Assembly: GCA_020056225.1 (NCBI GenBank)
Contig: JAGVIE010000020.1
Location: forward strand, 6,331 to 70,330
Length of the DNA stretch: 64,000 bases
Direction: 5' to 3'
DNA from: Bacteroidota bacterium
GTDB taxonomy: Bacteria; Bacteroidota; Ignavibacteria; UBA10030; SZUA-254
Below, in pieces: positions 12,442 through 64,000 of this stretch. The notes below the pieces were generated by a model, which saw only the letters and a program-made list of their open reading frames with translations, searched no databases and was not told the DNA's origin. The position numbers and the translations under genes were made by a program. The number at the start of each line of letters is the position of its first letter. Position 1 is the stretch's first letter.

Positions 12442-12460
12442 ACATTATTCCATTAGTAGT

Positions 12461-14065: not shown

Positions 14066-14114
14066 TCGAACCGGATTGAATCTGGTTTCTCCGATTACTA
14101 ATTTTTTAGATCGA

Positions 14115-18417: not shown

Positions 18418-18427
18418 TTGTCAATCG

Positions 18428-18526: not shown

Positions 18527-18533
18527 GGTTTTT

Positions 18534-22376: not shown

Positions 22377-22382
22377 TATTAA

Positions 22383-23258: not shown

Positions 23259-23263
23259 GAAGA

Positions 23264-38251: not shown

Positions 38252-38259
38252 ATTAGATA

Positions 38260-48900: not shown

Positions 48901-49868
48901 TCGAATCCGGTATATTTGATCTTCAATTGATTTTCATATTCGAATGTACGCTGTGTGTTCCAATCGGCGAGGATATTCAATTTTTTGCCTATCGTACCGC
49001 TCACATTTACCTGAACATTTTGGTTAAAGTCAGGCTCGTTCCGCGAACGATCGAGTTGTGAGATCGTCGATTGATCTGATTTGGTATTGCGGAATGCGCC
49101 TCGGATATCCACTCCGCCCGATATGCGGAGGTTATTTTCTGTTCCTCCAAAAATGTTAGAGATCGGATTCGAAGGAACGGTGATCGATATATTAGTTATT
49201 GATCCGAGAAGGTTGGACAGATCGTCTTTGGTTTGTGCTTTTGTATACTGGGTTGCAATCGACCGCCAGCTTCGTTGTTTTTCGTATTCATAACGAAGAT
49301 GAATGTAATCCTCCAATTTCATCGTGGTCGGAATTTTCACATCCACGCCGTTAACCATCTCGCGCACCGTGATTGTTTCGCCTAATGTATCGAGCTGGAT
49401 ATCCCGTTTGTAAACCTGCAGGCTCGGATCGAGATAGAGTGAATAATTATCGCGTGGAAACATCTCAACCATAGGTTCGTCATACCTTTGATGAACGAAT
49501 TGCTCAACGCGCGCCGTTGAATCTTTAAAGTCCTGCCACTTTTCACCTTCTTCTTCTTTATACAGAGTGTCGGTTGAAGCGGCAATCGAATCGATCAAAG
49601 CACCTATGGAATCGCTGACGGAAGGTGCCCTACCCATACGATGCTGAATTAGAGTATCGATATTTTCTTCTTCGTCGGGAAGAGGAGTTAGCAATTGCCG
49701 GGTTGAGTCAAAAGCTGTTGTATCGGGGCGATTGATGTAGAGTGAATCAACTTGCGCAAATAAAGAGGTGTAACAAATTAAAGCCAGTGTGGTAATATAA
49801 AAGAACCGAAGAATTCTTTGGTTAGCGAAGGATGTATTAATATAATGATGCGTACTAAAACGAGTCAC
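42954..49868 (-). CDS. sprA: SprA/Sov-like T9SS outer-membrane translocon candidate
   Basis: 2304 aa with a signal-like N-terminus. Its size matches SprA/Sov (about 2400-2500 aa) and its composition is β-strand-rich and aromatic/Gly/Asn-rich. Its neighbours are porX on one side and lptFG, porV and porU on the other. Confidence 0.6.
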   Translation of the reverse strand: MTRFSTHHYINTSFANQRILRFFYITTLALICYTSLFAQVDSLYINRPDTTAFDSTRQLLTPLPDEEENIDTLIQHRMGRAPSVSDSIGALIDSIAASTDTLYKEEEGEKWQDFKDSTARVEQFVHQRYDEPMVEMFPRDNYSLYLDPSLQVYKRDIQLDTLGETITVREMVNGVDVKIPTTMKLEDYIHLRYEYEKQRSWRSIATQYTKAQTKDDLSNLLGSITNISITVPSNPISNIFGGTENNLRISGGVDIRGAFRNTKSDQSTISQLDRSRNEPDFNQNVQVNVSGTIGKKLNILADWNTQRTFEYENQLKIKYTGFDDEIIQSIEAGNVSLQTPSLVGGGQALFGIKAKLQAGPLTLTTLLSQKKGQTKELTISGGSTTIERTIQAHDYTKNHFFLDTVYAKYFAKLQESQVRILTPDIEANQILQLDVYATNVSTSSQTYTQGNYKTGRAYIDLPSINVNENYSSEQIETLSKQSGRYEAGIFVRLIPNKDYKFDTYGGYITLNSAPSDNQVIAVSYTIAGENNVNKVFGGTIAGNDTLTYLKLIKPLSLRPGYTHAWNLLLKNFYSLGIQNLKKDGFILNIWRRATVGADEDNIEGLNLLSVLGLDRFNQFNSPTPDNFFDFIPGLTIDVERGEVIFPTLRPFDSTITQYFRSNNKTAGDSLLFGDIYDTTMSAAQNSDRNKYIIKVVAAGGTTSTFTLGSMNLVEGSVHVLLNGSPLTPNVDYTIDYIIGQVVIRRPEALVPGANLQIKYEQNDLFQLASKTLIGARGELDAFPNTKLGFTIMNLNQQTLSDKVRIGEEPTNNMMLGMDFSTSANLPFLTDAIDALPLIRTKEMSTWRINGEGAYMIPDPNTKKSAVLSDHGASIAYVDDFEGIRRTIPFPITYAAWSMSSTPMDSIANQLVPDSVISYKRSRLSWYNRLPTDVTTSDIWPNRRTRAGQNQVTVLNLDFDPNHRGTYNFSPDLDSTLNRQEIGGGTGKYNNPDARRENWGGIMRYIGSMAGNVLSQNIAYIEIWMKASSDDLNDLNKGRMHIDLGRISEDVIPDGNLNSEDIIHTEINPGGIPNGVLNEGEDAGVDMFDDNQEKIIHAAFLASNSSDPDVDPNDPGGDNWTAYGDGIHLTKFNGTDQNRQDPAGLFPNTEDLNGNGNIDRSELYLEYEIPLIDSTYIVGGGENGWYQYRIPLLEATRVFGGIDASTVLEDVQYIRLWLSGFSQPVSIRVAELNLVGNQWEERIKSDSVMKVSVVNIEDNPQYSEDWDALGIAREKDRSDPNQIIEANEQSLALILNGLPKDTSREVVKRFITRPLDIFNYKSMKMFVHGDQSFTPGDAEIYLRFGTDALNFYEYRQPIYPGWELSKNEINVIFSRITAVKSARPDSMANKYYVADALNGIAGATYGVRGSPSLRQVREISIGIRCVNVPYLSGDVWVNELRLVDVDNSPGAAYRFDTQIKLADIGQVAFNYSRTDPTFHSLDQRFGNQTAAASWAVNASISIDRFLPQDWQGTSIPFAYSHSENIVKPKYLPNTDIVVEEAARRASPDVSKSMITQSQTLNIKDSYSISNFRIVLPSQAWYIRDTFSKLSFIFNYNTTRDRDPSFELRKTWGWNLRVNYGVTLPNDYFIQPFSTLFKGIFFLEDYKDWKIYYIPITSLSAGVGGSRSRSYEIPRAKNSLTRDSRNFGATKSFGFGWKFTEGGLLNLGGDYGLSLDRNLTPLDNDSVGRDFLSIMKSLFFGGQDSRYGQKVSLNLKPKIPNILDLPKYFDFSTGYSVNYSWQNTFTKGDIGKSAAFDNNISMSLGFRLKSLTDPWFDTKEETAQLQPAPMAMNKPDPARTALLNDSTSRKDSSQTAQPSESNTKKMLQQLRSIAKILIKIPLLDYETINISYSQSNRSSNPSVIGSTGFKNFWGRLPFQGSLDEYGPSRLYQLGIITDPHGTLQFAPKSKFPFLGWKTIYGPRPAGAQPTDQFSQSNNITLRTNRPLWTGATIDINWKVGWNYSRTTTIRDSAGHFVRGEPITSGSIDRSFLTLPPVLFMKVFKSNLETVGKKYEQFQKTDAPDVALTKAFEQGFEALPFLSKVLGPYVPRPNWTIRWDGIEKLVGLGSVMERLSLEHNYSSNFRRDFQSNLGKGQRTNAEKMSYGFSPLAGVNMTFKQVLKGNLSGNFRYNTTTNYDLNLTAQQPNIVSALAQEISFTLNYARRGFSFPLFGLNLSNDIEVSFTYSRTKSSRRRYDPTLLSSDQEGIPLEGNIRTVLEPRIRYVLSTRVTAALYYRYTKTAPDAAGSTIYGVTTNEAGVDIHISI

Positions 49869-50222: not shown

Positions 50223-51605
50223 ATGAAACTTTCTTTTCACATACTGAAAGCACACCTGGGACCGTTTCTGTTTGCTTTCATCACCCTCATGTTTGTTTTC
50301 CTGTTACAATTTCTGATGAGGGCAGTGAACCAGCTTGTTGGAAAAGGATTAAGCGCCTGGGTTATCGGCGAATTAATCGTGGTGAGTCTTGCGTCTATGG
50401 TCGTGCTTGCGGTACCGATGGCAGTTCTCGTCGCAACACTTATGGCGTTTGGGAAACTCTCGTCTCAAAATGAAATTACGGCAATGAAGGCGAGCGGAAT
50501 AAGTCTTTACCGTATGATGTCAACGGTTGTTTTCGCATCGCTAATTCTTACATTCCTCCTGATTGAATTTGATAATAAAATACTACCCGAAGCGAACCAT
50601 CGGTTTAAAGTTTTAATGATAGATATCCGCCGGACAAAGCCGACCTTATCGATAGTTGCCGGAATGTTTTCACAGGATCTGCCGGGGTATTCCATACTTG
50701 CCCACAAAACATTCGAACAATCGAATGACCTCGAGGGTGTTACCATCTACGATTACACAGATCCAAACACAAATGTAGTCGTGACAGGCGAACGTGGAAA
50801 AGTTTCTTTCACGCCGGATTACCGGAGGCTGATTATGGATCTCTACAACGGCGAAATTCATCGCGTAGATGTACGTGACAGAAGTACATACCGAAAGATG
50901 AAATACGTACGTCACCGTATTGTGATGAACGCAGAGGGATTCGACTTCGAGCGATCGAGCCTGAATGCTTTCGACCGTAGTGACCGTGAGCTCAGCGCAC
51001 AGGATATGCAGATAATCGTCGACAGTTTGAGAAAAGTCAACGCCGCTATGTTCAATGAAATGTTTGACGATGCAGCAGTGCCAATGGCGATGATACCGGA
51101 TCCGAGAACATCTATCAGGATGAGGGATACAACCCTTTCATCTCGACAACGCATAGTCGCCATCGCTCTTAATAAAGCCCGTATGATGCTCGGCAACATA
51201 AATCGGCAAATTCAATTCAGCGAATATAACAACCGCCGCATCGACGAATACCTGGTTGAAATCAATAAAAAATATTCTATACCGGCGGCTTGTTTTGTCT
51301 TTCTTTTCATCGGTGCACCGCTCGGTATTATTGCCCGGCGTGGAACATTCGGGGTGGCAGCGACATTCAGCCTAGGATTTTTTATTTTATATTGGGCTGC
51401 CCTCATCGGCGGGGAAAAGCTTGCCGACCGCGGGTTCCTCAGTCCATGGCTGGGCATGTGGATGGCGAATATTTTTCTTTTCATCCTGGGCGTTTATCTT
51501 ACCTTCAGGATTGGTCGTGAAGCTCCGGCAATCAATTGGTCGGCACTACGGCGGTTTATACCGAAATCTTTCCGAACACCCGAATCACAATCGGTCGACG
51601 AATAA
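50223..51605 (+). CDS. LptF/LptG-family LPS export permease (with extended periplasmic domain)
   Basis: 460 aa reading MKLSFHILKAHLGPFLFAFITLMFVFLLQFLM..., the YjgP/YjgQ topology. It has a large periplasmic β-jellyroll region and C-terminal TM helices. Confidence 0.8.
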   Translation: MKLSFHILKAHLGPFLFAFITLMFVFLLQFLMRAVNQLVGKGLSAWVIGELIVVSLASMVVLAVPMAVLVATLMAFGKLSSQNEITAMKASGISLYRMMSTVVFASLILTFLLIEFDNKILPEANHRFKVLMIDIRRTKPTLSIVAGMFSQDLPGYSILAHKTFEQSNDLEGVTIYDYTDPNTNVVVTGERGKVSFTPDYRRLIMDLYNGEIHRVDVRDRSTYRKMKYVRHRIVMNAEGFDFERSSLNAFDRSDRELSAQDMQIIVDSLRKVNAAMFNEMFDDAAVPMAMIPDPRTSIRMRDTTLSSRQRIVAIALNKARMMLGNINRQIQFSEYNNRRIDEYLVEINKKYSIPAACFVFLFIGAPLGIIARRGTFGVAATFSLGFFILYWAALIGGEKLADRGFLSPWLGMWMANIFLFILGVYLTFRIGREAPAINWSALRRFIPKSFRTPESQSVDE

Positions 51606-52694
51606 ATGATGACAAGATTAGATCGATACATAATTCGGCAATTTATTTTAACTGCTTTCTTCTCGCTTTTTGCCATCACCATTATCTTTGTCGCTGTTAA
51701 CTTAATGGACAACCTTGATGATTTCCTAGATCTCAACGCATCAGTAGGCAAGATCGCGGCATACTATTTATACTTCATACCTGAAATAATTAAACTCATG
51801 ACACCGGTGGCTATGCTTCTTTCTGCTTTATTCACAACCGGACGTCTATCCACATACAATGAGCTGACTGCGTTAAAATCCGGCGGTGTAAGTTTATACC
51901 GTTTCATGTTGCCAATGATTGTGTTTGCAGTTTTCGTAAGCGGCGTGTCAATCTATTTTAACGGATGGGTAGTGCCTTTTGCAAACAAGAAGAAAATTGA
52001 AATCGGGCGGGTTTATTTTCAAAAAGATATAGAGTATGTATCGAAGAACAACATTTTTATCCAGGACTCACGCACGCGGATTATTTCTATTAGTATCTTC
52101 GACGACACACGGAACGTTGCGATTCACGTCAGCATACAGGATTTTGATCCGGGAAATTTATCGGTTATTGCCGCGCGATACGATGCAAATGAAATGCGCT
52201 GGGATCCTGCGGCGAAACAGTGGACTTTATTTCAAGGCTTCGAACGACGATTCAATAATGACACAGAAACCCTCAGATCATTCGATTCATTATTCATCGG
52301 GGTACTTAATTTTTCACCGGATGATATCCGCAAGAAACAGGAAAAGCCGGAGGAAATGAACTACAACGATTTGAAAAAATTCATCGCCAATCAACAGCGT
52401 GCCGGACAGGATGTATCAAGATGGCTGGTCGATTATTACGGTAAGATCGCATTCCCATTCGCGAGCGTCATCGTTATTTTGTTTGGAATTCCATTCTCAT
52501 CGATCAAGAGACGCAGCGGGCTCGGAGTTGAAGCCGGCATTGCAATCGGCATATCATTTCTTTATATGATATTTTTGCAAATTAGTCAGGCTTTCGGTTA
52601 CAACGGAGATATGCACCCGCTTTTGACTGCCTGGCTTGCAAATATTATTTTCTTCATGGCAGGAATATACGTTCTTTGGCGCGTCCCAAAGTAG
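51606..52694 (+). CDS. LptF/LptG-family LPS export permease (second paralog)
   Basis: 362 aa reading MMTRLDRYIIRQFILTAFFSLFAITIIFVAVNLMDNLDDF.... Its start overlaps the upstream stop (TAAATG). Confidence 0.8.
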   Translation: MMTRLDRYIIRQFILTAFFSLFAITIIFVAVNLMDNLDDFLDLNASVGKIAAYYLYFIPEIIKLMTPVAMLLSALFTTGRLSTYNELTALKSGGVSLYRFMLPMIVFAVFVSGVSIYFNGWVVPFANKKKIEIGRVYFQKDIEYVSKNNIFIQDSRTRIISISIFDDTRNVAIHVSIQDFDPGNLSVIAARYDANEMRWDPAAKQWTLFQGFERRFNNDTETLRSFDSLFIGVLNFSPDDIRKKQEKPEEMNYNDLKKFIANQQRAGQDVSRWLVDYYGKIAFPFASVIVILFGIPFSSIKRRSGLGVEAGIAIGISFLYMIFLQISQAFGYNGDMHPLLTAWLANIIFFMAGIYVLWRVPK

Positions 52695-52772: not shown

Positions 52773-53687
52773 TTAGAATGAATATTGAAAATCTGCCCGC
52801 GCCCCGGGGAGATAACCGTACGGAGTTTTATACATTTCCATCCTTACCGATGCGTGAAGTGCTTTATTATATCGCGTCGCCGTCCATGCGGCATCAAGTG
52901 CGCTGAGAATATGATTCACGATGATAACCGATACGAATGCGTCGGCAACCTTGTAATATTTATCTGCCTGGTTAAACATTGCAAAATAATCATAATATTG
53001 CTGGTTGGGTGTCATATAATCCGCTTCGTTCGGATCTTCAGAATCCCACCCCTTGCTGAATTGCCGGTATTTTCCTATCAGTTCGTAGTATTGCTGTTCA
53101 CCAAAATATTCCAGCTTATGTGTAAAGCCTTCTGTATTCATATCGTTTTCCAATTTATTTAATTCAGCCCAGTTCAGACATGGATAAGGCGGCTTGCAAT
53201 TATCATCCGGCGGATCAGGATTGAAAAGCTTATAGTTGTCCATATTCAAAGTATTATTATAATATTTTGCATTATTGCGAAGCCACTCGGCATAACGAAC
53301 CGGGCTGTAATGTTCGTTAGCATAATTTTTGAAGAGAGTCGTCTGATCGTTTCCTTTTTTATCGTAAACCAATGCGGTGATCCATGACCCGACCTCAACA
53401 CCGAAAAATATTCCCGCTTTCACATAACTTTTAGAGTAAAACTCACCGGCGCCGGGAACCGCCAGCGAAAGTAAGCCCGCTATCCATGGAGATTTTTCTC
53501 CGTCGGGATTCGGTTCGAACTCCTGCAAGTTGAGATTCGGCTGTTGTGATATTAACTCGTTGGGTACAGACTTCGGGCTGCCGAAGAAATCAACTTTCGG
53601 GTTACCCGTGAGATATAGCTGCTGCTTTTCACCAGCCGTTACCAGAGTTGTGAAAATTAATATCATAATAAATATTTTATATCTCAT
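52773..53687 (-). CDS. Hypothetical secreted protein (last gene of a four-gene coupled operon)
   Basis: 304 aa with a signal peptide MRYKIFIMILIFTTLVTAG. A hydrophobic segment IAGLLSLAVPGAGEFY follows. The protein is Tyr/Asn/Asp-rich with no recognisable family. Confidence 0.4.
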   Translation of the reverse strand: MRYKIFIMILIFTTLVTAGEKQQLYLTGNPKVDFFGSPKSVPNELISQQPNLNLQEFEPNPDGEKSPWIAGLLSLAVPGAGEFYSKSYVKAGIFFGVEVGSWITALVYDKKGNDQTTLFKNYANEHYSPVRYAEWLRNNAKYYNNTLNMDNYKLFNPDPPDDNCKPPYPCLNWAELNKLENDMNTEGFTHKLEYFGEQQYYELIGKYRQFSKGWDSEDPNEADYMTPNQQYYDYFAMFNQADKYYKVADAFVSVIIVNHILSALDAAWTATRYNKALHASVRMEMYKTPYGYLPGARADFQYSF

Positions 53688-53704
53688 TGAGCATTCCTTC
53701 TTTA

Positions 53705-56700
53705 TTAGTCTAGGTCAAAGCCGAATAAAACACCGAAGTGAAAATTCCACTCCCTGCCGTAGGTAACCACTTTGTTAGAGTTTTCAATTGTATAATCAAA
53801 CTTATCGAAGCCGTATGTTGCATTTAAAAAGATTCTTGTAGGGAAAGCATAGTAGGAAAAAGCTTCGATTCGTAGTTCAACGCCCGCATCTTTTTTCCAT
53901 TTACGATTTTTCAATCCGCCCCCCGTCCACGCGCTTCCGGCATCGCCATAGACCGAAGCATAGAGACTGTTGAATTGCATCTGCAAAAAACGGAGATCGA
54001 TATTTTCAAGCAGCGGGAACCTGTAAGTTAGATTTGCCATCGCAAATTCATTCCCTCCGAGCGAATAGAACGAATACCCCTTCATGCCGGCGAGTCCGCC
54101 AATATAAAAATTAAAGAAATTATCCACCGGCGGACCGAAGATAGTACCACCGCGTAGATGCGCAGACAATGTATGTTTCCATGCAGGAAGTTTAATAGAT
54201 TCCCGCCATCCAATCTCCAAACGATTGAAATTTATGTGTTCATATTTTGCGACTAAAACACCGTTCTTCACATCATACTCGCCGCTTGGATTGAATTTAT
54301 TGAATTCATGTTCATATCGTAAACGGATTTTCCTTCCTACCGGATTGATTTCCGATGTCTTAGACGGCAATATCCCGTCGTATCTCAATGTGAGCGAAAG
54401 ATTATTCCCGACCAAATAAAGCTCGCTGAATGCAGGGAATAGACCTCCGGGTAAATCGAATTCTCCTATCGTTGCCGTATATCTACTATGAGCATACCGT
54501 AATTCTGCATCAAGTCGCTCATTTAGAATTTTTTGTTTGAGCGCTACATCAAACTCGATTAAATTATAAGAAATACCAAGCTTGATAGTATCGATAGGCA
54601 AAGCAATATACGAATCTGTTTTACGTGTAATGTTGTACGCTTCCAATGATAGCGCAGGCTCCAATCCGAGCTGATAAAGTCCCGGTATCTTCCCGCGATA
54701 ATCGAATGTGAAAAAGACATCACGTTCACCTTTTAAATTCATCGCGCCGCCCGCGAAGAAACCGTACCGGTCCAAGACATCGTACGAGTACGCATATAAT
54801 CCTAACTTGATAACATCGATTCCTTTATTCTTCGGATTATAATTATCTACACGTAATAACGGGACGAAAGCTAAACCCGTGGAAATGTTTTTATACGTCG
54901 TGTCCTTGAATGCCGGAATCTGAATGTCGTCATATGATCGCAGTTTTTTCCAATCCATCTGCAAATTTTCATTCTCAACCGATGCTAACGCTCCTGCATT
55001 CGCCTGAATATAATTACCGGGATTCTGGAGCGACTGCACACTGTCAAGCAGCGCTATTATAAAACCGCCGGATGCGTACGAGGCAAAAGCGATACTACCT
55101 TCATTACTAACGGTGGGCATAAATGTTCCGCCAAATACATTAGTGAGCTGAACGGAGGTTTTAGCCAATAGATCGTATTCATATATATTGAAGATGCCGG
55201 TTTTGTCGGATGAATATATTATACGATTCCCATCCGATGTAAACACGGCATTACGTTCATCCGATGAAGTATTCAAAATAAATTTTACCTCACCGCCATC
55301 AGCAGGAATAATTGTGATGTCTCGTCCGTCGCGTACCGAGTAATCAAAAATTATCGATCTGCCGTCGGGTGACCATTTAGGATTATAAACCTGCTCGCCG
55401 TTTTGGTAAGCGGTAAGCTTCTTAACATTTTTGCCGTCGATATCCGAAGTGAAAAGATTGATGGTTCCGTCACTCGCGATTACAAATGCAATTGTTTTCC
55501 CATCGGGTGATACTGCCGGAGACCCTGCACGCAAACCGTTGGTCAGGCGTGTCTCCTCATCCTGCTCGATATCGTAGACATAGAGATCGAAAACATTAGC
55601 CCAATGCGGGTTATCTTTGCTGATTTTTGAGTAATAGATTTTCTTTCCGTCCGGTGACCATGAGAGATTCGACCGTACTCCATGCATGAGGAGTTTCTCT
55701 GTCTTCGATAAAATATCATACAAATATAGAGAGGATGAACCGAAGTAATCTCCATTTTTATTGCTTATAAAAATTATTTTCTTCCCATCCGGTGAGAAAG
55801 TCGGATAGAAATTTGCAAATCCCTCACTCGCGATCATTTCACCATCGATGATATTAGTTTTTATCGGAGCAACTCTGTCTGCATAATCTTTTCGAAGAAA
55901 TTCTTTCCACTCGGCATATAATTCTTTTCCGCTCTTGCCGATAGCTTTTTCTATCGCACCATCGATTGAAACTGCCGTCAGCGATGATAGATGCTCGGAA
56001 ATTTCGCGCAGTTTGTCTTCACCGTAATGTTTCGCCAAATAGCTGACGAGTGAATATCCGGAATTGTACGATGATTCATTGCCAAGGCTTGTCTTCCCGA
56101 AAACCGACATCTCATTCCATGTGAGTAATTTATCTTCAAGCGCGTACATCCGGAGAATCATATCTCTATGAGAATCCCACGATTCATATCCGAATTCTTT
56201 CCGGTTATATTGAGCAACGCCTTCGGCAAACCATACAGGAACGACGAATCCCGAAATCGGATATGAAACGATTCCGTTGGGATAGCCATAAAGTACATCC
56301 GTACGTCTTTCAGACTCATATTGCAGCCATTGTAAATAAATGGCAGGGACCTTTCGTCCGAATTTCAATGCTGTTTGAATTTGAATGAGGTGTGTGTATT
56401 CGTGCGAGATAACGTTGCGCAGCCAATTGTGTGTTCCTCGTAAATCATAATCGAGCGCTGATGACCAAATTTCAATTTTGTTATCGAAGAAATATGTAGC
56501 TCCGTTGGAAAAATCATCATAATCTTTAATGATGAAGCTAACTCTACCTTCCGGTTTGTAGTGATAGAGTGATGTTATCGGCTCATATATTTCTTCCGCG
56601 ATCTTTGCCGTTATTCGGGCGGTGCGTTCGGTACCTGTATGGTAATGTACATAAAAATGATCGGTCTGTATTGTACGCCATTCCAATTCCAGATGATAAA

Positions 56701-56779
56701 ATTCTTCCTGTGCGGTAATTTTCCCGATGATGAGAAGAAGAAGAATTGCGGATAACCAGTGTCTCATAATATTTTTCAT
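53705..56779 (-). CDS. Large secreted/outer-membrane multidomain protein with an HEXXH-motif N-domain, PD40/TolB-like β-propeller repeats and a C-terminal Omp85-like β-barrel-type region
   Basis: 1024 aa with a signal peptide. It has an intact VISHEYTHLIQ (HExxH). There are at least five PD40-type repeats (SPDGKKIIFISNKNGD, SWSPDGKKIYYSK, SPAVSPDGKTIAFV, KWSPDGRSIIFDYS, FTSDGNRIIYSSDKTG). The C-terminal 400 aa has alternating β pattern and ends ...EWNFHFGVLFGFDLD. Confidence 0.5.
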   Translation of the reverse strand: MKNIMRHWLSAILLLLIIGKITAQEEFYHLELEWRTIQTDHFYVHYHTGTERTARITAKIAEEIYEPITSLYHYKPEGRVSFIIKDYDDFSNGATYFFDNKIEIWSSALDYDLRGTHNWLRNVISHEYTHLIQIQTALKFGRKVPAIYLQWLQYESERRTDVLYGYPNGIVSYPISGFVVPVWFAEGVAQYNRKEFGYESWDSHRDMILRMYALEDKLLTWNEMSVFGKTSLGNESSYNSGYSLVSYLAKHYGEDKLREISEHLSSLTAVSIDGAIEKAIGKSGKELYAEWKEFLRKDYADRVAPIKTNIIDGEMIASEGFANFYPTFSPDGKKIIFISNKNGDYFGSSSLYLYDILSKTEKLLMHGVRSNLSWSPDGKKIYYSKISKDNPHWANVFDLYVYDIEQDEETRLTNGLRAGSPAVSPDGKTIAFVIASDGTINLFTSDIDGKNVKKLTAYQNGEQVYNPKWSPDGRSIIFDYSVRDGRDITIIPADGGEVKFILNTSSDERNAVFTSDGNRIIYSSDKTGIFNIYEYDLLAKTSVQLTNVFGGTFMPTVSNEGSIAFASYASGGFIIALLDSVQSLQNPGNYIQANAGALASVENENLQMDWKKLRSYDDIQIPAFKDTTYKNISTGLAFVPLLRVDNYNPKNKGIDVIKLGLYAYSYDVLDRYGFFAGGAMNLKGERDVFFTFDYRGKIPGLYQLGLEPALSLEAYNITRKTDSYIALPIDTIKLGISYNLIEFDVALKQKILNERLDAELRYAHSRYTATIGEFDLPGGLFPAFSELYLVGNNLSLTLRYDGILPSKTSEINPVGRKIRLRYEHEFNKFNPSGEYDVKNGVLVAKYEHINFNRLEIGWRESIKLPAWKHTLSAHLRGGTIFGPPVDNFFNFYIGGLAGMKGYSFYSLGGNEFAMANLTYRFPLLENIDLRFLQMQFNSLYASVYGDAGSAWTGGGLKNRKWKKDAGVELRIEAFSYYAFPTRIFLNATYGFDKFDYTIENSNKVVTYGREWNFHFGVLFGFDLD

Positions 56780-57444
56780 AGGATAAACGTACCGTTCGTA
56801 ACTCTATCGTTAAATAACTTGATTGAGTCGTATATAACGCTGCGATCTGGAAGTTGTAATTTAAGTTTTATCATCGGTAATATTTTATAAACAGCTTTGA
56901 AAGTATCTGGCGAATCATAATAATCGAACTCTTTGCCGATGGGCAAATTATTGCGCTCGATTGTAAACTTTCCTCTTCTGTCCGTTGTATCAGTTCGTCT
57001 GCCATCGAGAACAACCGGCGAATATTTTACAACGGCTGTATCGATATAATACCGGATTAAATACATTCCGCTTCCAACCGGACGATACATCCAATCTAAA
57101 CCGTCCCACCAAATGCGCCGGATCGGTCCGGTACGGTGCCAGAATCCGAGAAAGATCGTACTGATGAAATCGTGCTCTAAAGTAAATACGGTTATATCCA
57201 CAACTTTCATAGAATCGGTAACGATCACTTGCTGTGTGTCGGTCGGCAGTGCGGCAACAGAATCATAATAATAATAAAGTGAAACCGCCAAATCTTGTAT
57301 CGCTATTCCGCTGGAATCTATAACAATTCCATTAAATTGATACTTAGTTGCAGAAGATGATTCAGTGTATGGCTCGATCTCCCGACATGAAAGCGTAATC
57401 ACACACAATAAACCGGCAACAACATACCGCACAAAACACCTCAC
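56776..57444 (-). CDS. Hypothetical lipoprotein
   Basis: 222 aa. The lipobox-like LLCVITLSC lies in the signal peptide. It is 4-nt coupled to both flanking genes. Confidence 0.4.
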   Translation of the reverse strand: MRCFVRYVVAGLLCVITLSCREIEPYTESSSATKYQFNGIVIDSSGIAIQDLAVSLYYYYDSVAALPTDTQQVIVTDSMKVVDITVFTLEHDFISTIFLGFWHRTGPIRRIWWDGLDWMYRPVGSGMYLIRYYIDTAVVKYSPVVLDGRRTDTTDRRGKFTIERNNLPIGKEFDYYDSPDTFKAVYKILPMIKLKLQLPDRSVIYDSIKLFNDRVTNGTFIL

Positions 57445-60400
57445 TTCACGACAGCTATCTTAATGATCGCATACCCGCTCTTGTTCGATCCGCTCGCATC
57501 GATGTGGACGAAATAAATTCCGCTTTGTATCTTCGAAACGTTCCAAGATATTTCGTTATCGAATCCGCCGTACCCCGGTCCATCGAACTCGGTTACTAAA
57601 TCGCCGGCAGGATCGAAAATCCGAATATGTACTTTAGCATCGTCACTAAGAAAATATCGTATGTAAGTCTTGAAATCGTCCGATGCGCCGACAGGGTTGG
57701 GCCAGTTGTATGCAAGTGCAGTCGGCATAAATTCGTTGCTCTTTGGGACGAGAGGGGATGTTGATTCATCTAAGCCTGTGTTTTGAGCATCGTGCATATA
57801 TTGGGACCACGGCATCATTCGCGCGGTGTCGGAAATTGTTTGTACCGTTCCAGTTCTCCACGCATAAACATACCCGTCATCCGATGCAACTGCTAAACCG
57901 ATTCCGATTCCTGTTGAATCGGCTGGTAAATAAAACGCGGCTGGTGAACCGATGCCACCAAGAACCGGGAACCCGGTTGCCATCTTTCCCGATTTATCGT
58001 ACGCAACAATTAAACCTTCCTGTGTGACAGCCACAATATCGAGCGTGCCATTACCGTCAATATCTGCAACAATTGGAGGTGACCAAATCGATTTATCTGT
58101 AGCAACTTTTATCGGAAAATTATCTAATAAATTTCCGACAGCGTTAATAGTATAAATCTTATTGCCGCTGAATACTATAATATCTTTCTGTCCATCATCA
58201 TCGATATCTGCGAGAGCTGGAGAGAGATAGATTTTACCATTTGTTGATGATGGAAATCCCGGCATGGCGTTCAAATTCTCATCGAGAAGATAAACGAGAC
58301 CATCGTCAGATGCTGTAACAATCATTTTACCGATAGTTGGTGAAATTACGCCTGCTATTACTCCGGGCCATAAATGCTTTGAAAGATTTCGGGATCTAAT
58401 CATTCCTGCTGATGTAAAAATTCCGATTTCACCATAAACACCTGTAATAACAAATTCATCCGGTTGTCTCCAAACGCAGATACCACGGATATAAGAAGAA
58501 TCGGGGAAAGCTACCGAGCTGTGTGTTTCTTGATTTCCGGAACGTTTCATCACCAGAACCAAATTCCCATTTGGAACGCAATAAAAAGAGTCTGACATAA
58601 CTATAGATGAGAAGCCACTGCTTGCGATTTCCCCCTTTGTTAAGTCATCAGCAAGACTATCGTTATTTTGATCCCTCAGCATATAAAAATTAAACCAAGT
58701 CTTTGGTGGGGAAAAGAAAAATGATTCCATACCAACAATACCAAAATCCTGAACTTGATCGGCATTGATATCGCCAACAGCAGGTTTTCCAAAAAACAAT
58801 TTTAGGGTTTGATTTGTTGTTTGAACCAAAATTCCGGATGAATTATAATATGGTTGAATAGCCATACCATTCGTTTGCCATCCTGCAATTATTCCAGGCA
58901 ACGCTGCAATTGTTCCATATGTATTTGCCGCAACCAGTATATCTTTTTGACCATCACCATTCAAGTCGGCAACACTTATAGAATTACCCGCAAATATTCT
59001 TTGAAGATTTTTCGGAAATCCCGCCAACGGTCTAATCACATCATCTCCAACCTTAATTCGCGCCTTCATTATTGAACCGCGGTATGATAATCCGGTGGTA
59101 TCCGAGCTTGTAGTATTACCAATATAAATATGGCTGTTTGCGCCGTAATTACTCCCGCTGCCGGGATATGAAGTCGGCGTAAATGCGTTAAGTTCCTTGC
59201 GAAGCAATGCGCTGTGGCCGCGAAACCAGAAATCCAAAGCCCAGCCATTCTCCGTGCCCGAACCTGATTGAAGAAGATCGTACGACTGCCCTATATCCTG
59301 CGAGCCGTCCGCCTCCATCAGATTTACACCGCGATGTTTGGCATCCGCATTCACCGAATTTGTTCCGAGGTTGGCATCAATCACCACCTCATCGATATGC
59401 CAGATAAGTAAACCACCGTCGTATAATACTTTTGTTTTACTATCAACGCCGCCCGGCAGACTCCAGTCAAATTCATCGACATCGGTGATAACACCGTACA
59501 GCGAATCAGGACGATCGGCGTTGAAACCCGTTGTATCGCGTTCCCAGCTTTTTTCGATCGATTCACCGTTGTAAATCATTTTAATTTTCACACTGTCGCG
59601 GTTTGCATCACGGTTGCGATTTTCAACGAGGAAATATTCCTTCGCGCTTATCAATACCTGGTAGATTGTGTCAACGCTATCTGTCAGCGTGACGGCGGGG
59701 AAATTATATACAGTGTCGCCGGATGAAACAATATTCGGTTGAACCCATCCCAAAAATTTCTTTTCCCATGCGGATGGTTCGGGAGGAAACGCGCCATTCC
59801 AACTGAAAATCGATTGTCCGTCCATCAATCCGAAACGACCGATCCCTGAACGCCCTGTCTTTGTATTGAATAGATCTGGCAAACCAAGATAACTTCCAAC
59901 ACTCGCGGCAAGCAAGCCATTGATGCTTAGGGGAAAAGGAACCTGCTCACGCGTTTCAGTCTCCGGTAAGATCATCGAGTTAGTAATGTTGAATGTCGTG
60001 TTCCCCATAGTTACCGGAAAACCGTTCGACCAATCTGGATTCATTTTTTGCAAACTCTTCCCGTTTAAATAAATCGATGGGATATCGAACGGCGTCGGAT
60101 CGTATCCATAAACATTCACGAGGTCGATGTCTCTGCCGGCTCCGGCATGAAATATCAGAAAAGCATTATACTGACTGTAGGAAATATCGAGCAGATGCAG
60201 TTGAACAAGCGAATCAACCGCGTGCCAGGTATCTCTCATCAAATATCCCAGTTCGATATTATTGGTGCTGGATTTTTGCGGACTGTAAAAACGCATCGGA
60301 TTGGGAACGCGTATAACGCTATCGATCAGAGTTGTATGTACCGCAAGTTTCCCGTCGGATGCTTTTCTAAAATAATTTTCTAAAAAAGTCAGGTGGCTCT

Positions 60401-60695
60401 CAAAATAAGATCTATTATGCGGCGGCGCATCGAGAGTTTTTTTTGCCGGAAGTGAAAGATCGAACTTTCCATCACCTGTTGTCCTGTCATCGGAATCTGC
60501 CGGGAACTCGACCATAACGGCAAGTACGTTGATAGAGGATTCTGGATTTGCAACCCGAAGAAGTTGCGGTATGTCCGATGGATTGTCATTTCTCTCAAGC
60601 GTCAGCGAATGATTAAAAACGGGAATCTCTTTTGTTTGTCCTTGAAGCGATACGGCAAGCAGTAACAGTAACGAAAGAGTTTTTATGGTTTTCAT
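57441..60695 (-). CDS. T9SS cargo protein with a degenerate M6 (InhA-like) metallopeptidase-like N-domain, FG-GAP/VCBS-type repeats and a C-terminal T9SS sorting domain
   Basis: 1084 aa with a signal peptide. The N-terminal VLAVMVEFPADSD is M6-like. ...LAASVGSYLGLPDLF... occupies the place of the M6 HEXXHxLGLPDEY zinc motif. Asp-rich repeats are DLNGDGQKDILV, DIDDDGQKDIIVFSG and DIDGNGTLDIVAV. The C-terminus is ...HIRIFDPAGDLV...SGIYFVHIDASG...IIKIAVVK (type-A CTD). Confidence 0.6.
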   Translation of the reverse strand: MKTIKTLSLLLLLAVSLQGQTKEIPVFNHSLTLERNDNPSDIPQLLRVANPESSINVLAVMVEFPADSDDRTTGDGKFDLSLPAKKTLDAPPHNRSYFESHLTFLENYFRKASDGKLAVHTTLIDSVIRVPNPMRFYSPQKSSTNNIELGYLMRDTWHAVDSLVQLHLLDISYSQYNAFLIFHAGAGRDIDLVNVYGYDPTPFDIPSIYLNGKSLQKMNPDWSNGFPVTMGNTTFNITNSMILPETETREQVPFPLSINGLLAASVGSYLGLPDLFNTKTGRSGIGRFGLMDGQSIFSWNGAFPPEPSAWEKKFLGWVQPNIVSSGDTVYNFPAVTLTDSVDTIYQVLISAKEYFLVENRNRDANRDSVKIKMIYNGESIEKSWERDTTGFNADRPDSLYGVITDVDEFDWSLPGGVDSKTKVLYDGGLLIWHIDEVVIDANLGTNSVNADAKHRGVNLMEADGSQDIGQSYDLLQSGSGTENGWALDFWFRGHSALLRKELNAFTPTSYPGSGSNYGANSHIYIGNTTSSDTTGLSYRGSIMKARIKVGDDVIRPLAGFPKNLQRIFAGNSISVADLNGDGQKDILVAANTYGTIAALPGIIAGWQTNGMAIQPYYNSSGILVQTTNQTLKLFFGKPAVGDINADQVQDFGIVGMESFFFSPPKTWFNFYMLRDQNNDSLADDLTKGEIASSGFSSIVMSDSFYCVPNGNLVLVMKRSGNQETHSSVAFPDSSYIRGICVWRQPDEFVITGVYGEIGIFTSAGMIRSRNLSKHLWPGVIAGVISPTIGKMIVTASDDGLVYLLDENLNAMPGFPSSTNGKIYLSPALADIDDDGQKDIIVFSGNKIYTINAVGNLLDNFPIKVATDKSIWSPPIVADIDGNGTLDIVAVTQEGLIVAYDKSGKMATGFPVLGGIGSPAAFYLPADSTGIGIGLAVASDDGYVYAWRTGTVQTISDTARMMPWSQYMHDAQNTGLDESTSPLVPKSNEFMPTALAYNWPNPVGASDDFKTYIRYFLSDDAKVHIRIFDPAGDLVTEFDGPGYGGFDNEISWNVSKIQSGIYFVHIDASGSNKSGYAIIKIAVVK

Positions 60696-60743
60696 ACGAA
60701 CAGATTAAATTTCATAATAGTACGTGAAGAGTCAATACAACAG

Positions 60744-60777
60744 CTATGGAGAAGGTTGCTTTATTCCTTCTCCATAG
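60744..60777. terminator. Perfect 12-bp stem hairpin downstream of porV (terminator-like, weak U-tract)
   Basis: ctatggagaagg(60744-60755)-ttgctttatt-ccttctccatag(60766-60777). On the minus transcript it is followed by CUGUUGUAUUGAC. Confidence 0.35.
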
Positions 60778-60818
60778 TAATTATAATTATTTATGTAATG
60801 ATATAATTATCTTTTTGA

Positions 60819-61985
60819 TTATTCTTCTTGTTCTTCACCGCCCCAACTGATCAGTAAAGTAAAGCGGAGAGTTTCGCTAAGCGGGTGATTCTCTTCGAGA
60901 GTGGAGAGATAGCTAAAATCGAATCCATATATATCGTAGCGGATGCCGGCGCCGAAAGTCATAAACTTTCTGTTTCCATAATCAGGATGTTCGTAGAAAT
61001 ATCCCCATCTCAGGGCAAAGAGCTTCGGCTTACCGTACCAGTATTCCAATCCGCCGGCTACAGTAACCTTCTTCAATCCTCCGGATCCCCACGAACTGAA
61101 TAGTGATTTAGGAAGATTATCCACATACGATTCCTGAACAACTCTGCCGCTGTCATCTTTCACCTGCGGATAGCGTCGTACAAGCATACGGCTGAAGTCA
61201 ACTACCGCTTCCAGATTGTTGAATTCACTTTTCACGATTTTGAATCCCAATCCCAATCTCAAATTAGTCGGTAATGGATCTGCCTGTGATTTTTGGATGT
61301 AGGTTATTTTCGGACCAAGATTCGAGAGGTTCATACCGGCGCTGAAACGATCTTCGATATCACCAACAAGCGGCAGTACTATCGAGGAGGGTTTCCATAG
61401 AGTTCCGATATCGAAGCTTACAGTCGAACCGACACCTTTGATTCCTTGTCCTTGTGACGGATTAGGATCGAGAGCGCTGTAGATGAATCTGATATTCAAC
61501 CCTAAACCCAAATCGGTCGCAACCTTCGTTGAATAGCCGCCGGTTATTGCAAACTCGTATGCTTTGAATGTTCCTAAGTTATTATTCTGGTCATCGCGCC
61601 GTTCAAATGAGCCGAGGTTCAGATAGATGATGCTTCCGGAAACAGTTCCGCCCCAATCCTCGATATTCTGAGTATATGAAAAATATTCATAGAACAAATC
61701 CGAGAGATGAAATTGCGGCAACCAGTTGGAGTGAGTAATGCTTATTTCCTGACCCTTTGCAAAGGCTAGCCCACCCGGATTCCAGTACGAGGCAGATCCA
61801 TCATCACTTAAAGCAGCACCTGCTTCACCCATACCGTCGGCACGAGCGTTTGGCGCAATTAGTAAAAATGGAACTGCAGATTCGCCGCCGCCGCCCGACT
61901 GACCGAATGCCGGTTGTGCGGTAAACACAGCGAGAATCGCGAATATTATAAGAGCAGAGAGTTTCGCATATTTCTTTTGTATCAT
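60819..61985 (-). CDS. porV: PorV (LptO)-like T9SS outer-membrane shuttle β-barrel
   Basis: 388 aa with a signal peptide. The N-terminal AVPFLLIAPNARADGMGEAGAALSDDGSASYWNPGGLAF matches the PorV/FadL-like family start. It is the right size and lies immediately downstream of the porU-like gene. Confidence 0.75.
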   Translation of the reverse strand: MIQKKYAKLSALIIFAILAVFTAQPAFGQSGGGGESAVPFLLIAPNARADGMGEAGAALSDDGSASYWNPGGLAFAKGQEISITHSNWLPQFHLSDLFYEYFSYTQNIEDWGGTVSGSIIYLNLGSFERRDDQNNNLGTFKAYEFAITGGYSTKVATDLGLGLNIRFIYSALDPNPSQGQGIKGVGSTVSFDIGTLWKPSSIVLPLVGDIEDRFSAGMNLSNLGPKITYIQKSQADPLPTNLRLGLGFKIVKSEFNNLEAVVDFSRMLVRRYPQVKDDSGRVVQESYVDNLPKSLFSSWGSGGLKKVTVAGGLEYWYGKPKLFALRWGYFYEHPDYGNRKFMTFGAGIRYDIYGFDFSYLSTLEENHPLSETLRFTLLISWGGEEQEE

Positions 61986-62103: not shown

Positions 62104-64000
62104 TTATTTTAAAACGCTAAGCTTGCCGAGCGCTTCGCTTGAAAATCTTCCATCTTGTGTTTTTGCAATAATTTTGTAGAGATAAACACCGTTTGCGGGA
62201 ACATCCCCGTCACGGTCACGGCCATCCCAGGGAATACGCGCAAATTGATTTGCAATATTATTCTGTTTTATCGTTTGAATCAATCTACCGGCTACGGTGT
62301 AAATCTTAACCTGCACATCAATATTAACAACCTGATTGTGGTCGAAGGTGAAAACGGTTGCTGATGAAAATGGGTTCGGATAGTTGAATACATTGAATAT
62401 CTTTAAGCCGTCGCCCGATACAACATTAAACATCGTCTCTTCGGTGGAAGAATTATTATAAGTATCCCACGCGCGCAAACGAAGTTTGTGAGTTCCCTTT
62501 GAAAGAGTCCCCAGAGGATATTCTATGATACCTTCGGCGTACGTATCGAGTTTACTCTTATAATAATCAGAGAGATCGAAACTTTCCGGTTTTTCATCGA
62601 GCCAGGCTTCGAGCCGATGTCCGATGCCTGCCCCGGATGTATTTAGCCCGTTTGAATCGGATAGTTCGGCAATTAGTGTTGGAGATGAACCGACTACGTC
62701 GCCAGGGCGAAAACTTTTACGGTCGAGGTAGAGTTTTATTTGCGGTCCTATGGAATCAAGCGAGGCATCCGGATTTGTACCATTCACTGTAATATTTGTA
62801 AATCCTGCGCCATCAGTTGAATCATTCGAGAAATAAATCGTTATGCGGCCCGGCGAATCACTGTACGCTATATCTTTAGGCACAATAAAATCCGAACGGA
62901 GCAATCCATTCTGAATGCTGTTCTGCCCACGAAAGATAATACTGCCGGACGCCGTGTATGTCATCGTACGATTTATTTCCGGAGCGATAATTTCCGGAGC
63001 GATAAGCTTAATCGATTTGTTCGCATCATACACTACAACCTGCGCCTGCCCCGTGAAATTTATCGGGTTATCTGTTGCGGTATCCCTAACCGTTGCTTTG
63101 AAGGATGCTCGCTCAAGGGCTTTCATTCTGATACTGTCACTGCTTGGGTGATTATTGATACTATCAATCGATGCGACAAGTTTGGGAAACGATAGAACCA
63201 GCGCGGGGTCACCGAGTAAAAAATACTTCCGATCATTATCATCGTTCCGGTCTTGTTTTGTTCTGTACACGATATCTCCTATACGCTGTGACCGTAGCTT
63301 GCCGTATCGAATCGTATCGAGAAGATAATGATAAAATGTTCTATTCAAATCGAAGTTCTGATGTGCATAGACCGGTCGTGTGGCAGAGAAAACGCCGATA
63401 GCGCCTGCATTCGATAAATTTACGAGGATCTCTCCACTGCTTCTATCGCTTAACTGATCGAAGTTGGCATAATTACAGGTTGCCGCAACAAGGAAAAAAT
63501 ATTTTCCTTTGTTATGAAGCAATGGAAAATCGGTTTCCCGGACAAACACGGCCTCGTGGGTCCATAGACGAGGGTTACCGTGACCGGTAAAATTCAGAAT
63601 AAGCGTGCCCTGGTTAATCGCATTTTGAATGGCAGTGTTCACATCGGGTTTTCTTCTTCCGCTTGCCGTGAATACAGTGGGGTAATCGTATAAATAAATT
63701 TTCTTTTTCTCAAAAACCGGAGGAACCATTTTGGAGATATCATCTGCCTGCTGAGTGTGTATTAATCCGTCTGTGATATCACCTGCCTGGGGACCATCGT
63801 CGGCAACGAACGTAAAATTCAATTTCCAAGAATCTGCGATCGATTTTGTTTCGTAATCGATGATCTTATCGACCATGACATTTGCCTCTTCAGAAGTTCT
63901 TGCCGTGAGCCGCCCGATTCCCAAGTTAACCCGGCTACCGCTGAAAAATATTCCATAATCATCGTCGGTTGTATACGTGTATAATTCACGGAACGATTCT
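62104..64000 (-). CDS. porU: PorU-like T9SS C-terminal signal peptidase (C25 gingipain-like fold). The C-terminal ~630 aa is present and the 5' end is beyond the window.
   Basis: The ORF continues upstream past 64000. It has ...LILNFTGHGNPRLW...FFLVAATCNYANFD..., a caspase/C25-like His...Cys arrangement. Its own T9SS CTD is at the end (NVFNYPNPFSSATVF...KIYTVAGRLI...NGVYLYKIIAK...LSVLK). The porU-porV adjacency is conserved in T9SS organisms. Confidence 0.7.
   Translation of the reverse strand, partial: ESFRELYTYTTDDDYGIFFSGSRVNLGIGRLTARTSEEANVMVDKIIDYETKSIADSWKLNFTFVADDGPQAGDITDGLIHTQQADDISKMVPPVFEKKKIYLYDYPTVFTASGRRKPDVNTAIQNAINQGTLILNFTGHGNPRLWTHEAVFVRETDFPLLHNKGKYFFLVAATCNYANFDQLSDRSSGEILVNLSNAGAIGVFSATRPVYAHQNFDLNRTFYHYLLDTIRYGKLRSQRIGDIVYRTKQDRNDDNDRKYFLLGDPALVLSFPKLVASIDSINNHPSSDSIRMKALERASFKATVRDTATDNPINFTGQAQVVVYDANKSIKLIAPEIIAPEINRTMTYTASGSIIFRGQNSIQNGLLRSDFIVPKDIAYSDSPGRITIYFSNDSTDGAGFTNITVNGTNPDASLDSIGPQIKLYLDRKSFRPGDVVGSSPTLIAELSDSNGLNTSGAGIGHRLEAWLDEKPESFDLSDYYKSKLDTYAEGIIEYPLGTLSKGTHKLRLRAWDTYNNSSTEETMFNVVSGDGLKIFNVFNYPNPFSSATVFTFDHNQVVNIDVQVKIYTVAGRLIQTIKQNNIANQFARIPWDGRDRDGDVPANGVYLYKIIAKTQDGRFSSEALGKLSVLK

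Follow-up and report, generated by a model that had tools for sequence, protein, structure and literature searches.

Three genes that follow porV, the gene of an outer-membrane carrier of the T9SS (type IX secretion system), keep their order in at least six class- or phylum-level lineages of the FCB superphylum. They were analysed in a window of 64,000 nucleotides (nt), by which we mean the whole stretch of DNA under study, taken from an Ignavibacteria-class bacterium (GCA_020056225.1, contig JAGVIE010000020.1, positions 6,331 to 70,330), and they encode, in this order, an inactivated M6-like metalloprotease (M6i), a fusion of a peptidase domain, a propeller and an Omp85-type barrel (Omp85-peptidase), and a protein partly matching DUF5683 (DUF5683-like). 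The association of this gene set with the T9SS is strongly supported by the synteny. Judged from sequence, the set is probably a T9SS accessory, and we give an even chance to the more specific proposal that the locus is a conserved envelope module working with the T9SS at the PorV step, and not a row of ordinary cargo genes.

The synteny is what appears to be new here, and the cluster, built from catalogued parts, appears to be undescribed in the literature searched. An earlier sequence-only reading of the window had called the block a candidate undescribed module; this stands for the cluster itself, for which we found no paper, but not for its parts, as M6i has a curated NCBIfam name and the architecture of the Omp85-peptidase was catalogued in 2014.

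Gene order beside porV

The locus holds four minus-strand open reading frames (ORFs) at the coordinates which that reading gave, and the homologues of each product, which number in the hundreds to thousands, mark them as real genes, not as ORFs arisen by chance. The flanking genes were also named correctly, as confirmed by NCBIfam matches. The features are, with lengths in amino acids (aa):

57441-60695, minus: M6i (gene 1), 1084 aa, ATG start (ORF list)
56776-57444, minus: lipoprotein (gene 2), 222 aa, GTG start (ORF list)
53705-56779, minus: Omp85-peptidase (gene 3), 1024 aa, ATG start (ORF list)
52773-53687, minus: DUF5683-like protein (gene 4), 304 aa, ATG start (ORF list)
60819-61985, minus: porV, T9SS outer-membrane carrier of cargo with a type-A C-terminal domain (NF033710, 279.6 bits, cut-off 250)
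62104-64000, minus: porU, T9SS sortase, C-terminal ~606 aa of a gene that exceeds the window end (NF033707)
50223-52694, plus: lptF and lptG
42954-49868: sprA (1039 bits)
41294-42871: porX (719 bits)

The PorU fragment scored 623.9 bits against NF033707 (cut-off 420) over model positions 496-1094, and both neighbours score far higher as canonical PorU and PorV than as PorU2 and PorV2 in NCBIfam. The four genes had been described as translationally coupled through ATGA-type overlaps or a 17-nt gap. Reading of the sequence bore out the tight coupling, with an ATGA overlap between genes 2 and 3 (56776-56779) and a 17-nt gap between genes 3 and 4 (between 53705 and 53687), but the overlap of genes 1 and 2 (57441-57444) reads GTGA, a GTG start lying over a TGA stop. 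The G+C content of the window is ~42%, close homologues are labelled as metagenome-assembled genomes of Ignavibacteria, Ignavibacteriales or Bacteroidota, and Rfam and tRNA scans of the window gave no matches.

A genome scan with an alignment of gene 3 found that at least 596 species genomes encode a relative, and the best 80 loci, all from the class Ignavibacteria, were probed by tblastn with the window proteins; counts are given as present over testable loci. M6i was encoded directly upstream of the Omp85-peptidase in 74/74 loci and a PorV-family gene directly upstream of M6i in 63/63, with PorU upstream of porV in 59/60 and the DUF5683-like gene directly downstream of the Omp85-peptidase gene in 69/70. 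The neighbourhood of lptFG and sprA, which the earlier reading had included in the context of the block, was not conserved, lptG being a neighbour in 40/59 and sprA in 25/48 loci. The lipoprotein gene was present in 35 of the 74 loci, where the M6i and Omp85-peptidase genes are ~660-740 nt apart, and absent from the other 39, where this gap is below 300 nt; it was also absent from all non-Ignavibacteria lineages sampled. The proposal of four genes as a conserved unit was therefore rejected: the lipoprotein is dispensable, porV constant and porU usually present, and the real unit includes porV and excludes the lipoprotein.

Distant relatives were chosen by an exhaustive search of representatives and their contigs inspected, taxa being taken from the names of cluster members. 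The gene orders found are listed below with the identity to gene 3 and the score of the middle gene on the M6i model NF052323:

KSB1 (L081, L082), 43%: PorV-M6i-Omp85-DUF5683, no porU; 629 bits
Fidelibacter-type Marinimicrobia (L083), 36%: PorV-M6i-like-Omp85-DUF5683-BamD; 323 bits
Marine Marinimicrobia (L087 and the P0183 locus), 34-35%: MlaEFD-PorV-M6i-like-Omp85-~300-aa protein-BamD; 336 bits (L087)
Unplaced lineage (L085), 35%: PorV-M6i-like-Omp85-weak DUF5683; 348 bits
Rhodothermales (L089), 39%: PorU-PorV-M6i-Omp85-AhpC-DUF5683; 692 bits
Calditrichota (L090), 44%: PorU-PorV-M6i-Omp85-325-aa protein; 573 bits

A PorV-family gene lay directly upstream of M6i in all seven non-Ignavibacteria module loci with gene tables. 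NCBIfam was run on six of them, the P0183 locus being known from its gene table only, and the middle gene was an M6i homologue in every lineage so tested (323-692 bits), the Rhodothermales and KSB1 proteins scoring over the cut-off of 600 and those of Calditrichota (573), Marinimicrobia (323-336) and the unplaced lineage (348) under it. The gene order persists at identities as low as 34-36% for the Omp85-peptidase and ~25% for M6i, and the flanking genes differ in every lineage. Moreover, the M6i and Omp85-peptidase frames overlap by 1-8 nt or lie 4 nt apart in 6 of the 7 loci, representing 5 of the 6 lineages. Four paralogues of gene 3, with 32-37% identity (two further lineages, 32%; Chitinivibrionales, 37%; Gemmatimonadota, 34%), have neither PorV nor M6i encoded nearby, indicating that the linkage is specific to one orthologue group. 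The block is hence syntenic with T9SS genes, adjacent to porV across several phyla, and a link to the T9SS, which the sequence-only reading had called plausible, gains strong support that could not be known from a single locus.

Outer-membrane biogenesis genes flank the module in Marinimicrobia, where a YfiO/BamD gene always follows it (L083:13812-14564, L087:11863-12657 and the P0183 locus) and, in the two marine loci (L087, P0183), mlaEFD precedes it. In the Rhodothermales locus, a gene for an AhpC/TSA-type thiol peroxidase (L089:11454-12101) is inserted between those of the Omp85-peptidase and the DUF5683-like protein.

In the window, porV and the M6i gene are separated by a 123-nt spacer that holds a 12-bp hairpin:

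60736-60785, minus: RNA hairpin with a 12-bp core stem, CUAUGGAGAAGG/CCUUCUCCAUAG, and no U-tract

The whole spacer folds at -24.8 kcal/mol (ViennaRNA). Strong hairpins occur at this position in many, though not all, of the related loci (L001-L080), with spacer folds of -40 to -70 kcal/mol in many of the genomes, and are absent where the spacer measures 20-50 nt. Spacer lengths, estimated by placing the gene starts from tblastn matches, run from apparent overlap to ~216 nt (median 66 nt). Over 52.5-64 kb, scans for consensus promoters and terminators gave counts equal to the shuffled expectation. The simplest reading would be that all genes from porU through that of the DUF5683-like protein are transcribed as one unit, in which an internal hairpin is optional. 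Such a hairpin might keep the expression of the genes after it below that of porV and could act as an attenuator or stabiliser that sets the stoichiometry of PorV to their products.

Products of the locus

Gene 1 matches the NCBIfam equivalog NF052323, "T9SS-dependent M6-like inactivated metalloprotease", with 808.2 bits (cut-off 600). The protein is composed of a signal peptide, an inactivated M6-like domain, FG-GAP/VCBS propeller repeats (Pfam matches to FG-GAP_3 and FG-GAP) and a borderline type-A C-terminal domain, in agreement with its first description as a T9SS cargo with a pseudo-M6 domain and FG-GAP-like repeats. Two of its features are:

59868-59909, minus: degenerate zinc-site motif AASVGSYLGLPDLF, aa 263-276, replacing the HExxHxxGxxD of M6 peptidases
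57444-57704, minus: putative type-A T9SS C-terminal sorting domain, aa 998-1084, ending ...IIKIAVVK (PF18962, TIGR04183)

A search for HExxH across the whole M6i protein found none. The His/Glu/His positions are replaced in 8 of 8 aligned orthologues from four lineages, with the zinc ligands gone in KSB1, Marinimicrobia and the unplaced lineage as they are in the window. The sorting domain of the window protein scores just under both cut-offs (PF18962, 26.9 bits, cut-off 27; TIGR04183, 22.2 bits, cut-off 23), and is clearly over the cut-off in 4 of 6 M6i orthologues (39.9, 40.5, 35.8, and 28.3 bits). An active, InhA-like M6 protease was rejected as the identity of gene 1, because the zinc site is missing; the score on the M6 domain model (TIGR03296, 68.7 bits) is also below the cut-off of 110.8. 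PorZ does not fit: NF052228 gave 18.6 bits against a cut-off of 260 and matched in the C-terminal domain only. No paper on M6i was found in our literature search. In NCBIfam, the number of the M6i model is followed at once by those of "putative sortase PorU2" and "putative type IX sorting system protein PorV2" (NF052323-NF052325). This is a weak lead and not evidence; the curators may, in other lineages, have come across genes like that of M6i next to a second PorU/PorV pair.

Gene 3 encodes, in order, a signal peptide, a gluzincin-type peptidase domain, a six-bladed TolB-like propeller and an Omp85 barrel without POTRA domains. Its parts are as follows:

55859-56692, minus: peptidase domain, aa 30-307, helical in the AlphaFold2 model
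56390-56404, minus: HEYTH, aa 126-130, accompanied by WFAEG with the putative third zinc ligand E186
55046-55840, minus: PD40/TolB-like propeller of six blades, aa 314-578, 24 strands in the AlphaFold2 model
53723-54871, minus: Omp85-type barrel, aa 637-1019, ~16 long strands in the AlphaFold2 model
aa 889-902: L6 motif FYIGGLAGMKGY, between strands 11 and 12, with GGLAGMKGY at aa 894-902
aa 944-948: YGDAG, on strand 13

In Pfam, the protein matches Peptidase_MA_2 with 36.5 bits (cut-off 32.4) and PD40 repeats with 99.8 bits. Residues H126, E127, and H130 of HEYTH and E186 of WFAEG are invariant in the alignment of 32 homologues, which makes the zinc site look functional. All 6 module orthologues from other lineages retain HExxH and xAEG; among the four paralogues HExxH is kept in all and xAEG in three. 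The propeller, for which about five blades had been counted from the sequence and which has six, also matches DPPIV_N, Peptidase_S9_N and tricorn domains. It is the best part of the AlphaFold2 model (mean pLDDT, a confidence score, of 73) and is joined by a low-confidence linker of ~55 residues to the barrel, where the score is ~55-90. The strands of the barrel were counted from the DSSP list of the model, and the predicted ~16 long strands over aa 637-1019 agree with the 16-strand barrel that the earlier reading had put forward for structure prediction.

The Omp85 motifs compared, partly after PMC4490367, were (V/I)RG(F/Y) in L6 and (F/G)xDxG on strand 13. The two motif sites of gene 3, between strands 11 and 12 and on strand 13, are where the L6 and inner-wall motifs of an Omp85 protein belong. 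Residues G894, G895, L896, G898, G901, Y902, D946, and G948 are invariant in the gene 3 alignment, the Arg position of the L6 motif is Lys or Arg across orthologues, and the L6 motif is kept in all module orthologues, the strand-13 motif being variable in other lineages. A profile of the barrel only found BamA (4k3b, E = 0.023) and TamA and nothing else in the PDB, aligned over both motifs, with FYIGGLAGMKGY placed onto FYGGGLGSVRGY of BamA 4k3b and GDAGSAW onto ADAGSVW; the full-length profile found propeller proteins only. PF01103 was not reported for the window protein, and was found in 6 of 32 close homologues (best E = 1e-8) and in the paralogue P0229. No POTRA domain was matched by Pfam in gene 3 or its homologues. 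Taken together, Pfam, profile and model agree with the combination first read from the sequence, an HExxH domain, a PD40 propeller and a C-terminal Omp85-like barrel. The alternative that gene 3 is TolB itself or a paralogue of BamA was rejected, as the match to TolB (TIGR02800, propeller positions only) reaches 123.8 bits, far under the cut-off of 343, and POTRA domains are absent.

This architecture fits the "WD40-like" Omp85 cluster defined by Heinz and Lithgow (2014; Front Microbiol 5:370, PMC4104836) as a bioinformatic class for which they give no function: an aminopeptidase-like N-domain, a TolB-like propeller and an Omp85 barrel are joined in one chain. In the domain table of that article the subfamily has PF01103 with PF07676 and no POTRA (PF07244), and its Phyre table gives, depending on the protein, a BamA/TamA barrel, a TolB propeller and a peptidase N-terminus of M1 or M9 type. 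Gene 3 represents one orthologue group inside this class, the one tied to porV. Our literature search found no later work on the class. Public names of gene 3 homologues ('Tol biopolymer transport system component', 'tolB protein precursor', 'WD40 repeat protein', 'sugar lactone lactonase YvrE') fit the propeller only and are misleading.

Gene 4 encodes a signal peptide, a hydrophobic helical hairpin (aa ~66-108), a helical domain that includes a third hydrophobic helix (aa 246-270), and, at the C-terminus, a beta-hairpin with Phe as the last residue. The match to DUF5683 (29.2 bits, gathering cut-off 26.7) covers only profile positions 3-69 of 151, corresponding to the hydrophobic hairpin, and alignments show the rest of the protein to be family-specific. 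The motifs PGxGE, QQYYExIGKYxxFxxGW and NHxxSAxDA are kept across four aligned non-Ignavibacteria orthologues; the last residue is Phe in 32/32 Ignavibacteria homologues and Trp or Leu in other phyla. The AlphaFold2 model (pLDDT 73) is mostly helical and ends in the beta-hairpin, and no structural neighbours were found for it in the PDB. The earlier label of a secreted protein holds as far as the signal peptide goes, but the DUF5683-type hairpin and the third hydrophobic helix, three moderately hydrophobic segments altogether, indicate that it is not simply secreted and is probably a mostly helical, membrane-anchored protein. No paper on DUF5683 was found in the literature search.

Gene 2, which had been read as a lipoprotein, has a lipoprotein signal ending in a TLSC lipobox, and no credible family was found for it in Pfam, NCBIfam or a low-threshold Pfam search. 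In summary, the profile searches of the products returned matches to uncharacterised families and not to a well-characterised peptidase, TolB or BamA.

Proposed function and alternatives

Within the proposed module, M6i would cross the inner membrane by Sec and be exported through SprA by means of its type-A C-terminal domain, bound by PorV. Since its zinc site is lost in every lineage aligned and its gene always lies beside that of the carrier, M6i is probably a surface-retained, non-catalytic binder or scaffold held by PorV. Such retention would parallel that of PorU and PorZ on PorV and PorQ, and M6i may also be likened to type-B cargo kept on a PorP-like protein encoded alongside; type-B cargo genes sit beside PorP-like carrier genes (PMC9143113). 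The 1024-aa protein would be anchored in the outer membrane by its POTRA-less barrel, with its N-terminal domains in the periplasm by analogy with other Omp85 proteins, including PlpD. The six-bladed propeller probably controls access to the gluzincin peptidase, much as in the enzymes tricorn and prolyl-oligopeptidase, in which case the substrates would be peptides or unfolded chains and not folded proteins. The DUF5683-like protein may be a membrane-anchored helical partner; the beta-hairpin at its C-terminus, which closes with a hydrophobic or aromatic residue, could dock on the barrel. The most likely job of the module would then be proteolytic clearance or processing on the periplasmic side, coupled to PorV-dependent cargo handling, with stalled or unfolded cargo or spent C-terminal-domain peptides as candidate substrates and M6i as the partner on the surface side.

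Several points weigh against this proposal. The member accessions of the WD40-like subfamily, as we take them, include those of Ignavibacterium album, Melioribacter roseus, Rhodothermus, Salinibacter, Caldithrix, Cytophaga, myxobacteria, Geobacter and Vibrio, and the family would thus presumably occur also in phyla without a T9SS, so that its basic activity is not T9SS-specific. In Gemmatimonadota, the paralogue P0246 is encoded directly after an Opp-type oligopeptide ABC transporter (L092:1-7934, DEAC01000023.1), which points to general peptide catabolism. The module is not universal among T9SS organisms: three small genes within 2.2 kb come after porU-porV in Cytophaga hutchinsonii (PMC8564354), so that porV stands without the module in that member of the classical Bacteroidetes. 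The hairpin between porV and M6i weighs on co-transcription in the window, and both AlphaFold2 models are of medium confidence (pLDDT 73). The topology of the N-terminal domains, the contact between M6i and PorV and the docking of the DUF5683-like protein are parts of the proposal that we infer. Finally, no description of the cluster turned up in our literature searches, which covered M6i, WD40-Omp85, PorU2/PorV2, DUF5683 and, for these phyla, the T9SS together with Omp85.

The transporter at L092 comprises two permeases and two ATPases with oligo_HPY. This arrangement hints that the wider Omp85-peptidase family acts in peptide handling.

A bolder version of the proposed module, which we regard as improbable, is that the trio forms an unrecognised T9SS sub-complex in deep-branching FCB (Ignavibacteria, Rhodothermia, Calditrichota, KSB1, and Marinimicrobia), with M6i on PorV as its surface half and the Omp85-peptidase with the DUF5683-like protein as its trans-outer-membrane and periplasmic half. 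Such a complex might replace the PorZ-PorQ side of the attachment complex, or spent C-terminal-domain signals might be captured by the dead protease, passed through the Omp85 barrel and degraded by the gated peptidase. If true, either would give the WD40-like Omp85 class its first defined role and would, type V secretion apart, be the first assignment of an Omp85 protein to a secretion system.

Three other explanations were weighed. The locus could instead serve peptide scavenging and depend on the T9SS solely for the export of M6i, which we consider rather unlikely. M6i would then be a surface receptor for peptides or proteins, the Omp85 barrel the passage, and the gated peptidase would trim the material for inner-membrane importers, the porV linkage merely reflecting the export need of M6i. 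A propeller combined with a peptidase is indeed typical of oligopeptidases, in line with the DPPIV_N, Peptidase_S9_N and tricorn matches, and the position of the Gemmatimonadota paralogue behind an Opp-type transporter points the same way, as would the occurrence of the family in many phyla that presumably lack a T9SS. Furthermore, a pseudo-protease can retain a peptide-binding cleft. However, no Opp or other peptide importer adjoins the module in the module loci seen, and we know of no Omp85 protein that imports nutrients. In addition, T9SS genomes have many cargo genes and only that of M6i stays by porV across six lineages, which exceeds what an export need would produce.

An outer-membrane biogenesis or quality-control factor dedicated to T9SS barrels is also improbable in our view. 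Here, barrel and propeller would resemble a BamA-BamB fusion, a BepA-like peptidase would take part in inserting or degrading stalled PorV or SprA, and clients or cofactors would be the roles of M6i and the DUF5683-like protein. The L6 lid-lock motif and barrel topology of Omp85 proteins are kept, and Heinz and Lithgow (PMC4104836) liken the WD40-like subfamily to such a fusion. The terminal Phe on the beta-hairpin of the DUF5683-like protein recalls the beta-signal of outer-membrane proteins, but it is exchanged for Trp or Leu in other phyla. Likewise, bamD (YfiO) directly follows the module in three Marinimicrobia loci and lptFG in many Ignavibacteria, but these neighbours are lineage-specific, whereas porV and M6i are constant. 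Against this explanation also stands the absence of POTRA domains, in place of which there is only a ~55-residue, low-confidence linker, and the obligatory pairing with a surface pseudo-protease would be left unexplained.

That the order is merely inherited, M6i being one T9SS cargo among others and the Omp85-peptidase a housekeeping protease of the envelope unrelated to it, is very doubtful. In its favour, all carrier lineages belong to the one superphylum, so common descent could contribute, and the region tolerates change, as its lipoprotein gene and lptFG/sprA neighbours show. Against it, the order persists to 34-36% (Omp85-peptidase) and ~25% (M6i) identity amid reshuffled surroundings, with overlapping reading frames in most lineages and same-family paralogues that are not linked to porV.

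The mechanism of the T9SS has been worked out almost entirely in Porphyromonas and Flavobacterium, and genes that have kept their place next to porV in at least six lineages are strong candidates for supplying an accessory function that is still missing from the picture. The T9SS-linked module would offer a first functional handle on the WD40-like Omp85 class, the M6i pseudo-proteases and a DUF5683-like protein, and even a mere peptide-scavenging unit would define the activity of a widespread Omp85 subfamily. Cultivated carriers are likely to be available: the module was seen in Fidelibacter multiformis and is expected by lineage in Rhodothermus marinus, Melioribacter roseus, Ignavibacterium album and Caldithrix abyssi.

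Other gene clusters and relation to known systems

Three further clusters lie elsewhere in the window:

1317-15625, minus: polysaccharide synthesis and export cluster, with a Wza-like Poly_export/SLBB protein, a GNVR chain-length protein, a Wzx-type flippase, GT2 and GT4 glycosyltransferases, an initiating sugar transferase, a Wzi-like protein and an enzyme of the GDP-mannose dehydratase family (NAD-dependent epimerase/dehydratase)
15830-24250, minus: Bat/MoxR aerotolerance-type operon, with a MoxR AAA ATPase, a DUF58 protein, a weak BatD-like protein, BatA, a VWA protein, a TPR protein, BatD and a TPR-SH3 protein
33331-39027, minus: 1015-aa TPR protein whose YbgF/BamD-type repeats are strong and whose PorW/SprE match, at 136 bits, stays under the threshold of 250, beside a 630-aa OmpA-C-terminal protein, a TonB-C protein and a 543-aa ORF without a family match

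The G+C content drops to 34-38% at 6-10 kb, compared to ~42% elsewhere in the window, which suggests a horizontally exchanged, glycan-specific segment. As T9SS genes are nearby, the genes at 33331-39027 could include a divergent PorW/SprE-PorE-like pair.

The closest likeness of gene 3 is to the WD40-like Omp85 subfamily, with the same three-part architecture and a BamA/TamA-like barrel without POTRA domains; in the passages and tables consulted, the defining article (PMC4104836) is silent on a T9SS linkage, an intact zinc site, and M6i or DUF5683-like partners. Gene 1 agrees with NF052323 in scoring over the cut-off and in having lost HExxH, and has a putative type-A C-terminal domain, but that entry is a naming model only, whose name says nothing of how constantly such genes are paired with porV and that of the Omp85-peptidase. 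From TolB of the Tol-Pal system, gene 3 differs in that it lacks the TolB N-terminal domain and is fused to a peptidase and a barrel.

BepA of E. coli is a periplasmic HExxH zinc peptidase that works beside an Omp85 barrel, that of the BAM complex, in outer-membrane protein quality control. However, BepA is an M48 peptidase with tetratricopeptide repeats and a separate polypeptide, so that the likeness would be a functional analogy only, and the NCBIfam BepA model gave no match to gene 3. In PlpD, a patatin-Omp85 protein of Pseudomonas aeruginosa, the N-terminal enzyme domain on the barrel stays periplasmic (PMC11116518). PlpD combines a lipase with one POTRA domain and has no secretion-system partner, whereas gene 3 combines a putative zinc peptidase with a propeller and has no POTRA domain.

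The PorU-PorV-PorZ-PorQ attachment complex of Porphyromonas gingivalis resembles the proposed module in that its surface proteins are T9SS cargo on PorV-family barrels; porU and porV are directly upstream here, and M6i, like PorZ, has a propeller and, by prediction, a C-terminal domain. In contrast, M6i matches the PorZ model in the C-terminal domain only (18.6 bits against 260), the partner barrel is of the Omp85 type and not the FadL-like PorQ, and the putative periplasmic peptidase of the locus is without a counterpart in that complex.

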